The notes beneath the pieces are model-generated. The model was not told the DNA's origin. It did no database searches and was given only the letters and a program-made list of their open reading frames with translations. Made by a program: the position numbers and the translations under genes. Positions 27,667 to 32,532 of a stretch of DNA of 32,577 nucleotides are shown one piece after another. Positions within the stretch are counted from its first letter, which is position 1. Each line of letters opens with the position of its first letter. Origin of the DNA: Candidatus Undinarchaeota archaeon (GTDB lineage Archaea > SpSt-1190); the NCBI GenBank assembly GCA_964449215.1, contig CAYVAH010000003.1, positions 1 to 32,577 on the forward strand, written 5' to 3'.

Positions 27667-28226
27667 TGGCGAGGAGAATAACCACAAAGGACAAGTGGAA
27701 AGCCAAGACCTGGTACACCATAGTCGCACCAAAGGACTTTGGGGAAACCCCTGTGGGGGAAACCCCTGCAAGCGACCCGAAAATGGTTGTGGGAAGGAGG
27801 GTGGAGGTGGCGGCAAACGATGTGGCAAGCGGGAAGGGACTGAACCATGTAAAGCTGATTTTTGAGGTGGAAAAGGTAGTGGGAACAACCGCCCACACCC
27901 GGCTGGTGGGTTATGAGGTTGTCAGGAGTTACATAAGGAGTATAGTCCGGCGGAGGAGGAAAAGGATTGACCTGGTGAAGGACCTGAAAATAGGCGGGAG
28001 AAAACTCAGGGTGAAACTCATAACCATGACTGCCGGCAAGTGCTATGCGACCCAGGAGAGGGACATAAGGAAGGTTCTGGAGGAATCCCTCAAGTCACCT
28101 GCAAAAACCGTTGAGGAGTTCATGGCGTCCGTTCTCAGCAGGGAGCTTCAGGGCTCCATGAAAGAGAAGGCTAAAAAGGTATTCCCCATCACAAACGTGG
28201 AAATAAGGAGAATTGAATTTCTCTAG
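27663..28226 (+). CDS. rps3ae: 30S ribosomal protein S3Ae (eS1)
   Basis: [44 protein letters not shown]. Confidence 0.95.
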
Positions 28227-28420
28227 AGCTCCTTTATTGTGTTAACGGCTGTGGCAATCCACAGCACACCCCCCATAAACACCAGCAGGAACGCCACAAA
28301 AAATGTCAGGAGGGCATCCGCCGTGGCCGCCTCTGAAAAACGGAAGTTCGATGTGAGAAGGGCCCCGAGCAGTATCGAAAAGGAGCCAAAAGCCAGGAAA
28401 GCAACATCCTTGGTCTGCAT
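28223..28420 (-). CDS. small two-TM membrane protein (65 aa)
   Basis: Two hydrophobic helices; TAATG overlap with the upstream Lys-rich gene. Confidence 0.7.
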   Translation of the reverse strand: MQTKDVAFLAFGSFSILLGALLTSNFRFSEAATADALLTFFVAFLLVFMGGVLWIATAVNTIKEL

Positions 28421-28752
28421 TATTTCTTCACCCTCTTGGCGGATTTCCGGGCGGTCCGCTTCTTGGTCGTCTTCTTGGCTGTTTTCTTCGCTGGCTTCTT
28501 TGCCTTGGCCGCCTTCTTGGTCTTCCTGGTGGTCTTCTTGGTTATTCTCTTGGTCTTCCTGGCAGGTTTCTTGGCACTCTTCTTGGCCTTCTTGGTCTTC
28601 CTGGTGGTCTTCTTTGGCTTCGCAGGTTCAGCTCCTATCTCCGCAACCTGGTCGAGTCCGAGGTCAAATTTCTCAGCCTCTTCAAGCTTCTCCATAACAT
28701 CGTTGGAAGACTCCCTCGAACCGAACAACCAACCGAATATCTTACGTAACAT
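28420..28752 (-). CDS. histone H1-like Lys/Ala/Thr-rich protein
   Basis: AAGGAGG SD; N-terminal amphipathic MLRKIFGWLFG, acidic linker, and a 67-aa tail with 37 K/R and no acidic residue. Confidence 0.8.
   Translation of the reverse strand: MLRKIFGWLFGSRESSNDVMEKLEEAEKFDLGLDQVAEIGAEPAKPKKTTRKTKKAKKSAKKPARKTKRITKKTTRKTKKAAKAKKPAKKTAKKTTKKRTARKSAKRVKK
28511..28614. repeat. 29-bp exact direct repeat in the Lys-rich gene
   Basis: GCCTTCTTGGTCTTCCTGGTGGTCTTCTT at 28511-28539 and 28586-28614, encoding KKTTRKTKKA twice. Confidence 0.9.
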
Positions 28753-28773
28753 ACAAAAGTAAATCCTCCTTAA

Positions 28774-29706: not shown

Positions 29707-32034
29707 TCAACTCCAGGACCTCAAATTTTCATAGAATCTTATCTGGTCCTTATCCAGACTTGGGTTTATTTTTATCAGGGCTTCCTTGAAGTTTCTCATT
29801 GATATTTCGCCCATGAACTTCTTGGGCTCAATCTCGAACTTCCTCAGCTCCTCGGTGTCTCCTTTCTTCAACAGGGCGTCAATCTCTCCCCCAAGCCCCA
29901 GACTCATAAAGTATTCCCTGAGTTCCTTCTCCTTTATCTTACCTTCAAGGAATTCCTGAATCTTCCCCCTCGCCTCCCGGGTCTTCTTCACCCCGGCACG
30001 AACCTCAGTCATCACAGCTTCCCTGACGAGGGCCGCCAGGTCCGCCCCGGTAAAGTTCTCGGTTTTTTTCGCTATCTCTCCCAAGTCCACGTCCTTGGCA
30101 AGGGGAATCTTGGAGGTATGCACCTCAAGTATCTTCTTCCTCGTTTCCTCATTGGGCAGCGGGAGATATATGAAAGTGTCAAACCTTCCTGGGCGGAGCA
30201 TCGAGGGGTCGAGCAGGTCCGGGCGGTTTGTGGCAGCGAGCACAACAACGCCACGCAGGTTTTCAATCCCATCAAGCTCCGTGAGCAGCTGATTAAGGAC
30301 GCGGTCAGCAACCTTGCTTGAGTCCGTTCCTCTCTTCACGGCTATGGAGTCAATCTCGTCGAACAGTATGATGGCGGGGGCCATCTGACGCGCCTTGCGG
30401 AACACCTTCCTGACCGCCCTCTCACTCTCCCCCACCCACTTGCTGAGTATCTCAGGCCCCTTGATGGCGATAAAGTTCGCGTTTGTCTCATTCGCCACAG
30501 CCTTGGCAAGCATGGTCTTACCACAGCCGGGAGGACCGTAGAGCAGCACGCCCTTCGGCGGCTCGAGCCCGAGGGACTCGTAGGTCTTCGGGTATTTGAG
30601 AGGCCACTCCACTCCCTCCATAAGCTTCCTCTTGGCTTCCTCAAGACCCCCAACATCCTCCCACTTCACGTTGGGTATCTGCACTATTGCATCCCTCATG
30701 CCGCTCGGCTCTATTTCCAGCAGGGCATTCATGAAGTCATCCATGGTAACCTCAAGCTTGTTCAGTATCTCCGCGGGGATCTCCTCGGGGATCTCCCCCC
30801 GCTCCTTTATGACCTCGGGCAACAGCCTCCTCAGAGCCTTCAAAGCGGCCTCCTTGGAAAGCATCGAAAGGTCCGCCCCGGTAAAGCCGTTGGTTATATC
30901 GGAAAGCCTCTCGAGGTCAACATCCTTGGCAAGGGGCATTCCCCTGGTGTGAATCTGGAGTATCTCGTACCGACCGTTCTTGTCCGGGACACCTATCTCA
31001 ATCTCCCTGTCGAACCTCCCTGGGCGGCGGAGGGCAGGATCGATGGAATCCACTATATTGGTTGCCGCTATCACTATGACCTGTCCTCTACCTTTCAGGC
31101 CATCCAGCACGGTCAGGAGCTGACTGACCACGCGACGCTCGACCTCCCCGTGCACCTCCTCCCTCCGGGGAGCAATAGCATCCAGCTCGTCTATGAAGAC
31201 TATGGCCGGCGCGTTCTTGCTCGCCTCTTCAAAGACCTCCCTCAGCCGGCGCTCGGACTCCCCGTAGTATTTGCTCATAATTTCGGGACCGTTTATGGTG
31301 AGGAAGTATGCATTGGTCTCATTCGCCACAGCCTTGGCAAGCAGGGTCTTCCCCGTCCCGGGAGGACCATGAAGCAACACGCCCTTCGGCGGCTCAATAC
31401 CGAGCTTCTGGAAAAGTATGGGATGCTTCATGGGAAGCTCCACCATCTCCCTTATCTTCTTTATTTCCTCCTGAAGGCCACCTATATCCTCATAGGTAAC
31501 CCCCGGAACCATGGCTTCCCCGGGCTTCATGGGTTTCTCGCTTATCTTTATTTCAGTCTCAGCGGAAACATAGACAATCCCCTTCGGGTTGGTGTTGGCA
31601 ACCACAAAGGGTATGCTCTGACCCATTATGTCAAAAACAACAAGGTCCCCTTTGTGAGCGGGCTTGTTCATCAGCCTCTGTTTGAAATAATTGGCGATAT
31701 CCCCGCGGAGATATATTTTCTCCACGGGTGCCAGCAAGAGCTGTTTGGCGGGACTCGCCTCCACCTTACTCACAGTAACGAAGTCCCCGAGCGAGACGCC
31801 CGCGTTCTTGCGGAGAATGCCGTCAATCCTTATCAGCTCGGACCCCTCATCCTGCAGCCTGCTCCTCCAGACCACCGCGGCGGTCTCATTCTGTCCCTTG
31901 ATTAGAATTATGTCACCAGTCGAGACCCCGAGCTTCTCCATGGTTCTGTTGTCTATCCGGGCAATCCCCCTGCCAACATCGGCGTATTCCGCCTCTGCCA
32001 CCTTAAGCTGAACGGCATCCTCCACGAACACCAC
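29707..32034 (-). CDS. cdc48: CDC48/VAT family AAA+ ATPase
   Basis: N-domain [10 protein letters not shown]; two AAA modules ([22 protein letters not shown] and [19 protein letters not shown]). Confidence 0.96.
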
Positions 32035-32484
32035 CTATTTGATGGGTATGTCAACCCTCTCCTTCTCTTTCGGCTCAACCCTCACCAGCTTCACTTCGAG
32101 TATCCCGTTCTTGTAGGTTGCCTCCGCACCCTGTTTCTTCACCCTGGCTGGCAAAGAGACCTCCTTCACGAAAACCATGGAGCTCGCTGAAAAACTCCCC
32201 TTCTTCCGCTTCTGCTCCTCCCTCCTCGCACTTATCACCAGGCGCTGATTCCCGAACTCATCGTCCTTTATCCGGAGCTTTATGTCCTTCTTCTCCACTC
32301 CGGGAACCTCAGCGGTCACGATAATCCTGTCCTTCTCCTCCCGGACATCCACAAGGGGTTCCCTGACAAATCCCTCCTCCGTTACTGCGGGCCTCGGAAA
32401 CCACTCATCGTCCCAGAAGAAAGGCCCGAAAAACAGCTTCTTCCAGACCCTTCTTATCTCATCGAACGGATCCACCTCCACCAC
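32035..32484 (-). CDS. hsp20: small heat shock protein Hsp20
   Basis: EPLVDV, AEVPGVEKKDI, ATYKNGILEVKL alpha-crystallin motifs. The start may be a downstream in-frame GTG (32481 or 32475). Confidence 0.94.
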   Translation of the reverse strand: MVEVDPFDEIRRVWKKLFFGPFFWDDEWFPRPAVTEEGFVREPLVDVREEKDRIIVTAEVPGVEKKDIKLRIKDDEFGNQRLVISARREEQKRKKGSFSASSMVFVKEVSLPARVKKQGAEATYKNGILEVKLVRVEPKEKERVDIPIK

Positions 32485-32489
32485 CTCCT

Positions 32490-32532
32490 TAAGGTTACTT
32501 TCAGTAACTAAACTGTTTTCAGGCTTTAAAAA
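32490..32532 (-). promoter_or_regulatory. heat-shock promoter: TATA plus Phr/HSR1-like palindromic operator
   Basis: Minus strand TTTTTAAA (32532-32525), then TTTAGTTACTGAAAGTAACCTTA (32512-32490) with core GTTAC-N5-GTAAC, then SD AGGAGGTG. Confidence 0.7.

Follow-up and report, generated by a model that had tools for sequence, protein, structure and literature searches.

The described systems closest to the subject of this study, a row of five co-oriented genes on a 32,577-nucleotide stretch of a Candidatus Undinarchaeota contig (CAYVAH010000003.1; the whole stretch is called the window below), are the ribosome hibernation factor HibA/AHA, the Phr regulon, the HSR1 operon, and the chlamydial Hc1/Hc2 proteins together with eukaryotic linker histone H1. 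Hc1/Hc2 (PF07382 HC2) and H1 have basic tails rich in lysine, alanine and threonine (K/A/T), which H1 combines with a winged helix bearing basic arms. Phr is autoregulatory and binds over the transcription start site (PMC9133787), hsp20 and VAT1 are Phr targets in Pyrococcus furiosus, where long reads give hsp20-VAT1-albA separate starts (PMC10746257), and control of hibA by Phr is stated for Thermococcales (PMC13324472). The hsp20-containing HSR1 operon of Archaeoglobus fulgidus carries the palindrome CTAAC-N5-GTTAG (PMC9133787). HibA (Pyrococcus abyssi, 9SR9 series) is a fusion in which an HPF/RaiA domain follows four CBS domains, and it is found in 47% of archaea (PMC13324472); AHA of Haloferax volcanii has the same layout (PMC13728122). 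In both structures a peptidyl transferase centre (PTC) loop, residues 190-207 in P. abyssi HibA (9sr9_H), lies in the catalytic centre (PMC13324472, PMC13728122), and it has been proposed to couple sensing of adenosine monophosphate to ribosome binding (PMC13728122).

The row studied here comprises hsp20, cdc48, hibA, a lysine-rich gene and a membrane-protein gene (genes 1 to 5). In it the known Phr regulon forms a family-specific physical cluster with a new HibA variant that lacks the PTC loop, beside an uncharacterised gene pair that appears to be separately promoted. We favour, with moderate confidence, an explanation by two adjacent units: a Phr-repressed hsp20-cdc48 unit that may extend to hibA, followed by a separately driven pair for a DNA-binding protein and a membrane protein. 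An earlier reading of the sequence alone (the sequence-only reading) had proposed one switch for proteome protection, ribosome hibernation and nucleoid compaction or tethering, possibly for a host-free stage; this proposal fails at gene 4 with its own conserved promoter-like element. It had also been aware of no description of the combination: we found none of the arrangement among the papers listed on DPANN heat shock and Phr or on hibA-hsp20 operons, whereas Phr control of hsp20, cdc48 and hibA is already reported for Thermococcales (PMC10746257, PMC13324472). The features concerned are as follows.

32525-32538, minus strand: promoter of hsp20, a transcription factor B recognition element with TATA box (BRE-TATA; 12.8 bits, matrix from transfer RNA (tRNA) leaders)
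32490-32512, unstranded: Phr-type operator, TTTA-GTTAC-N5-GTAAC-CTTA, over the predicted transcription start (matrix rank 1)
32035-32484, minus strand: hsp20, small heat-shock chaperone (PF00011, 53 bits, cut-off 20.8)
29707-32034, minus strand: cdc48/VAT, AAA+ unfoldase with one further paralogue in G000 (TIGR01243, 1088.7 bits, cut-off 802.65)
28774-29697, minus strand: hibA, ribosome hibernation factor of the HibA/AHA family (profile and fold matches)
28774-28787, minus strand: internal BRE-TATA element, GGAAAG-TTTATTAG, inside the last hibA codons and ending 21 nt before the gene 4 ATG
28420-28752, minus strand: lysine-rich protein, 110 residues, isoelectric point 11.0 (composition, alignment)
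28223-28420, minus strand: membrane protein, 65 residues, two hydrophobic segments (no named family)
26736-28226, plus strand: convergent Nob1-S15-S3ae block (Pfam), outside the unit and used as a synteny control

Conservation of the five-gene row

The genome that contains the window (G000; genomes, fetched loci and contigs are labelled G, L and C) is archaeal, of a DPANN-type lineage, and measures 788 kb at 95% completeness and 52.5% G+C, with the window on contig C3. It forms family f1 with nine other genomes of 0.6-0.9 Mb, within a phylum represented by 17 genomes. The five minus-strand open reading frames (ORFs) with gaps of 0, 9, 21 and -1 nt described in the sequence-only reading are all present, and their linkage is not peculiar to G000, since family relatives keep the order. 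All five genes stand in order on one contig in four of the nine relatives (G002, G006, G007 and G008) and in two metagenome loci, L058 (from the same species as G000) and L065; the rows of G001, G003, G004, G005 and G009 are broken at contig ends and compatible with this order, and hibA of G001 was not found.

A HibA/HPF match occurs in 182 of 401 sampled genomes. For comparison we used 95 hibA/HPF loci from outside the family, about one per genus, taken from among the 142 outside matches listed (38 further matches exist beyond these), each extended by some 5 kb upstream and 2.5 kb downstream as far as the contig reached; the statements on outside hibA loci in this text refer to this sample. 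The five-gene order was absent from all 95, as were homologues of the lysine-rich and membrane genes, and hsp20 lay nearby in two loci, cdc48 in one and both in none. Five cdc48 loci from the phylum's other families likewise lacked both hsp20 and hibA. With the order absent from the 95 outside loci and these five, the cluster is family-specific within our sample; a tblastx check of wider synteny was noisy and was used loosely only. Two cases of hsp20 close to hibA are independent of the family's cluster, one downstream and co-oriented (G148, L182) and one convergent (G075, L176).

Conserved order by itself does not prove co-regulation, because the convergent S3ae and S15 genes, which cannot share a transcript with the row, follow the membrane gene in nine of nine relatives and are thus kept equally well. 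This bears on the explanation by one stress switch, in which release of Phr would yield a five-gene message and the internal promoter would supply a basal level only. Such a switch, which we consider unlikely, would fit the order and orientation kept across the whole family, the short gaps in G000 and the Phr box at the head of the row; it is at odds with the equal conservation of the unrelated ribosomal genes and with the lack of the order at the 95 other hibA/HPF loci. The evidence at genes 4 and 5, given below, tells further against it.

A Phr-type operator at hsp20 and a Phr homologue

The identities of hsp20 and cdc48 are as first proposed, each scoring above the cut-off of its family model; hsp20 also matches NF041800 (E 1e-26), below cut-off. 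Because the relatives' proteins begin with MDP, hsp20 probably starts at the GTG at 32475, three codons past the longest-ORF start. The 0-nt gap to cdc48 assumes the first cdc48 GTG, and a GTG 9 nt later that is compatible with a Shine-Dalgarno (SD) motif is equally possible. The second cdc48 paralogue lies on contig C20. In several relatives the cdc48 match falls into two pieces within one long frame of 859-891 residues, for example in L025 (G002:C61:18693-21080), L024 and L023, which suggests an insertion such as an intein.

The sequence-only reading had given the row an operator-bearing promoter, and this holds: a TATA element and a rank-1 Phr-type site precede hsp20, and a Phr homologue is encoded elsewhere in the genome. 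The operator core, GTTAC-N5-GTAAC, sits 16-31 nt after the hsp20 TATA motif, and compared with the described box, TTTA ... TGGTAA ... AAAA, the TTTA and GTAA elements are present and the final AAAA is swapped for CTTA. The exact core occurs once in 788 kb at a chance expectation of about 0.7 (10 fixed bases, our own estimate), so that the weight comes from position and from the matrix test. For the latter, a matrix seeded with what we take to be the Phr-box consensus was trained on 17 upstream regions of relatives, 15 of which contributed, with G000 left out. Genome-wide in G000, this relatives-trained matrix ranks the hsp20 site first (23.7 bits) and the promoter of the phr homologue second (20.5 bits). 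The third-ranking match (G000:C5:21751, 19.3 bits) adjoins a TATA-like stretch and lies some 2 kb ahead of the 23S ribosomal RNA (rRNA) gene; no ORF of at least 90 residues is in position there, and what the box serves could be an RNA or a small gene.

The Phr homologue (160 residues, G000:C5:19315-19797) matches 2p4w with E 3e-25 over 146 residues, has NF053602 Phr_regulator as its best NCBIfam family (E 3e-29) and recurs in six of the nine family relatives. At its gene (G000:C5:19293-19797, L074/L089) the Phr box ends right at the ATG, a layout that recurs in G004, G007 and G009; because of this abutment the gene is probably leaderless and autoregulated. The winged helix-turn-helix (wHTH) domain found in gene 4 of relatives was rejected as the operator's repressor, since the genome with the best operator, G000, lacks this domain and encodes its Phr homologue separately. 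Three points weigh against Phr control as we propose it: the homologue scores 101.9 bits against a family cut-off of 320, set at the level of Pyrococcus; the 60 nt nearest to hsp20 yielded no Phr box in G007 or G009; and the right arm of the operator doubles as an SD motif in several relatives.

In P. furiosus, too, a palindromic box lies over the start at hsp20 and at phr, and hsp20 adjoins cdc48 with the gene for a DNA-binding protein next (PMC10746257, PMC9133787). There, however, each gene has its own box and start, whereas here one box heads hsp20-cdc48 with its 0-9-nt gap; only two sites are clearly placed, the host is a DPANN-type archaeon of 0.8 Mb, and the downstream protein is lysine-rich rather than Alba. 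The HSR1 operon shares the 5-N5-5 palindrome on an hsp20-containing operon and differs in that the arms here are GTTAC/GTAAC and the regulator gene lies outside the cluster. Under the two-unit explanation, a Phr-type repressor on the operator over the hsp20 start would block RNA polymerase until heat or a similar stress releases it; Hsp20, once made, would hold unfolded proteins, and Cdc48 would unfold or extract them.

A HibA variant without the PTC loop

The gene 3 protein of G000 has a compact module of four CBS domains (residues 1-205) and an HPF/RaiA domain (208-305), with HPF-type secondary structure spanning 210-306. Pfam returns the CBS match only, and single-sequence searches of the PDB gave nothing significant; a profile of 11 family sequences finds P. 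abyssi HibA (9sr9_H) as its best PDB match, at E 2.5e-13 and over both domains. In the predicted structure (mean predicted local distance difference test (pLDDT) score 87), residues 1-205 resemble the four-CBS module of Dri (Z 16.8, root-mean-square deviation (rmsd) 3.4, 202 aligned) and the SriA/B modules (Z 16.6), and residues 208-303 resemble HPF/RaiA (6h4n_x; Z 13.7, rmsd 2.0, 93 aligned). The profile match and the modelled fold identify gene 3 as a HibA/AHA hibernation factor, in keeping with the HPF fold first assigned to it.

We aligned six family HibAs with 82 homologues from the 95 outside loci (330-430 residues with a Met start; 13 dropped), using a reference numbering that corresponds 1:1 with 9sr9_H. 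Between reference residues 186 and 211 all six family proteins have no residue at all, compared to 21-42 residues in every one of the 82 others, and over residues 176-240 they retain 31 compared to 58-81. The deletion is clean, comprises about 34 residues and takes the CBS3 helix together with the PTC loop, leaving CBS3 truncated; none of the 82 other aligned HibAs has lost the loop. The G000 protein is accordingly shorter than HibA (307 versus 392 residues), and family hibA differs further in adjoining hsp20-cdc48, both of which are near hibA in none of the 95 outside loci. Because the HibA/AHA family is defined by its domain fusion, we class the loopless form as a variant within it, new here as judged from the alignment. 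No loopless form was described in the literature found, which comprised the HibA paper and its preprint; the text supplements of PMC13324472 and PMC13728122 are silent on it, and family members may lie in the alignments of these studies.

A divergent PTC that would match the loop loss was considered and is unsupported by G001, the only family member with 23S domain V (that of G000 is unassembled). Among what we take to be the PTC motifs, those at 2447-2453 and 2602 are exact in G001 and that at 2583-2585 has one flanking mismatch. At the position that presumably corresponds to E. coli 2503, the 23S rRNA of G001 (L229) and of G011 (L227) has C for A. In the proposed mechanism, the HPF domain of HibA would enter the messenger RNA/tRNA channel of the 30S subunit and thereby park idle ribosomes; the loopless CBS module would probably fill vacant tRNA sites of the 50S subunit and, since it has no PTC loop, probably leave the catalytic centre unplugged.

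As to how hibA is expressed, the GAGGTGA motif named in the sequence-only reading does lie 4-6 nt before its ATG. With gaps to cdc48 of 9 nt in G000 and 5 nt in G009, a well-placed GAGGT overlaps the cdc48 stop, and in G000 hibA would be read from the hsp20-cdc48 message by way of this SD. Against co-transcription stand the gaps of 20-43 nt in seven of nine loci, several with T-rich tracts, which leave tight coupling to two of nine; moreover, hibA may have its own start, as a 4.1-bit promoter match lies 22 nt before it in G000. These points suit an arrangement in three units, in which Phr would control hsp20-cdc48 only, hibA would have its own promoter and the row would be inherited synteny without joint control. 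We regard this arrangement as quite improbable. It draws further on the promoter-like matches before hibA in three of nine loci (G000 included), on hsp20 or cdc48 being near hibA in just three of the 95 outside loci, and on the separate starts in the P. furiosus cluster (PMC10746257). Against it stand the short gaps and stop-overlapping SD of G000 and G009, the hibA promoter signal, which is unconserved in position (mean -1.4 bits), and the report of hibA as a Phr target elsewhere (PMC13324472).

A probably separately promoted pair for a lysine-rich protein and a membrane protein

The row had originally been thought to have one operator-bearing promoter serving all five genes. The promoter before hsp20 stands, as described above, whereas a second promoter-like element (28787-28774) precedes gene 4 and is conserved at the sequence level in 13 of 13 loci: AAAG or AACG is followed by a TATA-like octamer that ends 19-23 nt from the ATG. 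With a matrix trained on G000 tRNA leaders only (19 of 29 used), the score is positive at 19-22 nt before gene 4 in all 13 loci, and the mean peaks at 21 nt (5.2 bits versus -5.8 ± 3.3 over all offsets). Matches rank within the top 5% of their own locus for gene 4 in 7/13 loci, hibA in 3/9, the membrane gene in 1/10 and cdc48 in 0/11. Before 360 long ORFs of G000, promoter matches pile up 19-22 nt ahead of the first ATG (31, 43, 32 and 20, versus 1-13 elsewhere), and this genome-wide peak marks 19-22 nt as the leaderless spacing of G000; many G000 genes appear leaderless. The element before gene 4 is kept whether it is coding (G000 and L060, where it encodes the last residues of HibA) or intergenic, and in 9 of 12 loci hibA and gene 4 are separated by 32-35 nt, which matches the length of the promoter. 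A sigma-70/hairpin scan, of a type unsuited to archaea, was at chance level.

No Phr box was found before gene 4 (13 loci) or the membrane gene (10 loci), where the best matches reach at most 8.0 bits versus 11.8-26.8 for the training sites. The AAGGAGG first read as the SD of gene 4 ends 12 nt before its ATG and occurs in G000 only (1/12 loci), so that this part of the SD prediction does not hold; a GGTG-type word stands at -9 and -14 in two other loci. A single switch that includes genes 4 and 5 thus meets, at gene 4, a conserved promoter of its own without a Phr box and an unconserved SD motif and, at gene 5, a membrane gene that has different neighbours in each of the 20 genomes from outside the family. 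Independent regulation of downstream genes, which the sequence-only reading had named as a refutation of its proposal, is thereby indicated at the sequence level for genes 4 and 5. In favour of that switch, no clear terminator was seen after hibA, and an internal promoter is compatible with read-through from the Phr promoter; against two separate units stands also the modest score of the second promoter of G000 itself (3.9 bits, top 2.7% of windows).

The gene 4 protein of G000 has 33 Lys and 9 Arg, with no acidic residue among its last 67, and is laid out as a conserved N-terminal hydrophobic and basic helix, an acidic stretch and a K/A/T tail. It matches no Pfam family at E ≤ 0.1, and the label "H1-like" given to it before is a likeness of composition only. 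In nine of nine relatives a winged-helix domain follows the basic tract, a second basic tract follows the domain in G001, G006 and G008, and the K/R-rich tails, which stand on one side of it or on both, reach lengths of about 150 residues. Two queries found the wHTH domain nowhere in G000. The identical 110-residue protein is encoded in L058 and L059, and the sister locus L060 has a wHTH-less form of 81 residues; since two other assemblies give the same short protein and L060 is also domain-less, we rejected an assembly error as the source of the loss.

FaeA-type Pfam families score above cut-off in all seven relatives scanned, HC2 below its cut-off of 40 in two of them (28.2 and 14.4 bits). 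Models of the domain (pLDDT 96-98) confirm a generic winged-helix fold that ties at Z 8-9.5 among MarR, IclR, SelB and Z-alpha. Its mean column identity is 63%, better than that of the tail, and its recognition helix reads TARRYLYYL. In Z-alpha domains the characteristic residues are Asn and Tyr of helix 3 and a Trp of the wing. Profile and fold searches with the relatives' domain (for example L034:387-563) repeatedly return the Z-alpha domains of ZBP1, PKZ and ORF112, ZBP1 and PKZ with profile matches at E of about 1e-3; the helix-3 Tyr and wing Trp are invariant, and the Asn position is Arg. The fold-search matches listed include no linker-histone chain, though kinship may exist. The family is narrow: outside matches occur in 11 of 391 genomes and are weak (E 1e-8 or worse), and 17 representatives fall under 1e-10 among 1.84 billion sequences, three of them long multi-repeat proteins. 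In the ESM Atlas all matches to a wHTH-bearing homologue were below 0.9.

In its K/A/T-rich basic tail and, in the relatives, a winged helix with one or two basic arms, gene 4 thus resembles Hc1/Hc2 and H1, and G000 encodes three histones above cut-off. It differs from Hc1/Hc2 in that HC2 is absent from the G000 protein and below cut-off in the two relatives, from H1 in that its wHTH scores with FaeA, DeoR, IclR and Z-alpha types, with no linker-histone family among the matches listed, and from both in its extra hydrophobic N-terminal helix. Under the two-unit explanation, the second unit, whose own promoter has no Phr box, would give a leaderless transcript for a polycationic protein that binds DNA (by a winged helix and lysine-rich arms in relatives, by the arm only in G000) and for a coupled small membrane protein. 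From charge and fold we infer a nucleoid role: the gene 4 protein is most likely nucleoid-associated and specific to this lineage, and its N-terminal helix may hold it at the membrane. Two findings weigh against this assignment. Tails rich in lysine are widespread in these archaea (3 of the 95 unrelated hibA loci, two other G000 proteins), so that for the wHTH-less protein DNA binding is suggested by charge alone, and the hydrophobic moment of the N-terminus (0.37-0.60) is not above the genome's 95th percentile (0.64). Two further proteins, L31e-like and S19e-like by eye (G000:C31:4704-5183 and 5578-6144), end in long extensions that are rich in Lys or in Lys and Glu.

That gene 4 instead encodes a sequence-specific winged-helix regulator, possibly tethered to the membrane with gene 5 as sensor or anchor and decayed in G000, is doubtful, if worth keeping in mind. 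The far better conservation of the wHTH than of the tail, the FaeA-type matches above cut-off and the fold ties with MarR, IclR and Z-alpha domains speak for a regulator; tails of up to about 150 K/R-rich residues would be unusual for one, and the lineages of G000/L058/L059 and of L060 keep promoter, N-terminus and tail without the wHTH, which suggests that the tail works alone. Among the papers listed on archaeal linker histones or DPANN chromatin we found no description of such a lysine-rich winged-helix protein.

The gene 5 protein has no Pfam or NCBIfam match, only matches below 0.9 in the ESM Atlas, and an identity of 44-85% within the family. Genes 4 and 5 overlap or lie at most 12 nt apart in 13 of 13 loci, and the membrane gene is predicted to be translationally coupled to the lysine-rich gene. 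Homologues of gene 5 were found in 30 of 401 genomes, each between 0.6 and 1.6 Mb in size. Those in the wider small-genome archaea adjoin other genes (all 20 genomes outside the family), and gene 5 is not stress-specific. A tail-to-tail arrangement with S3ae recurs in G011 and G021. In three of the four genomes of family f4, a histone-fold gene (55-64 residues, DUF1931/histone matches) lies directly upstream of the gene 5 homologue (G013, L042:1864-2034; G014, L040:1232-1399; G016, L039:1212-1406), and such repeated chromatin-gene neighbours are a lead only. Elsewhere in the window, at 21283-26057 on the plus strand, runs a series of about ten co-oriented ORFs of 130-250 residues, several with an N-terminal hydrophobic segment; none of the nine scanned has a Pfam match at E < 0.05, and the run may encode pilins or surface proteins.

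The physical clustering of the Phr core in an archaeon of 0.8 Mb shows which means of surviving stress are retained in a reduced genome, and a natural HibA without the PTC loop offers a ready test of whether this loop is needed for hibernation. The family-restricted protein with winged helix and lysine-rich tails is a candidate for a new archaeal chromatin protein of H1-like layout in histone-bearing cells. In a bolder version, which we hold to be very improbable, this histone-bearing DPANN-type family would have independently built a membrane-anchored, linker-histone-like protein that has a small partner. Under stress, read-through from the Phr promoter would raise this protein together with the chaperones and the PTC-loop-less HibA, so that chromosome condensation and ribosome parking would occur in a single step, in preparation for dormancy or a host-free stage.

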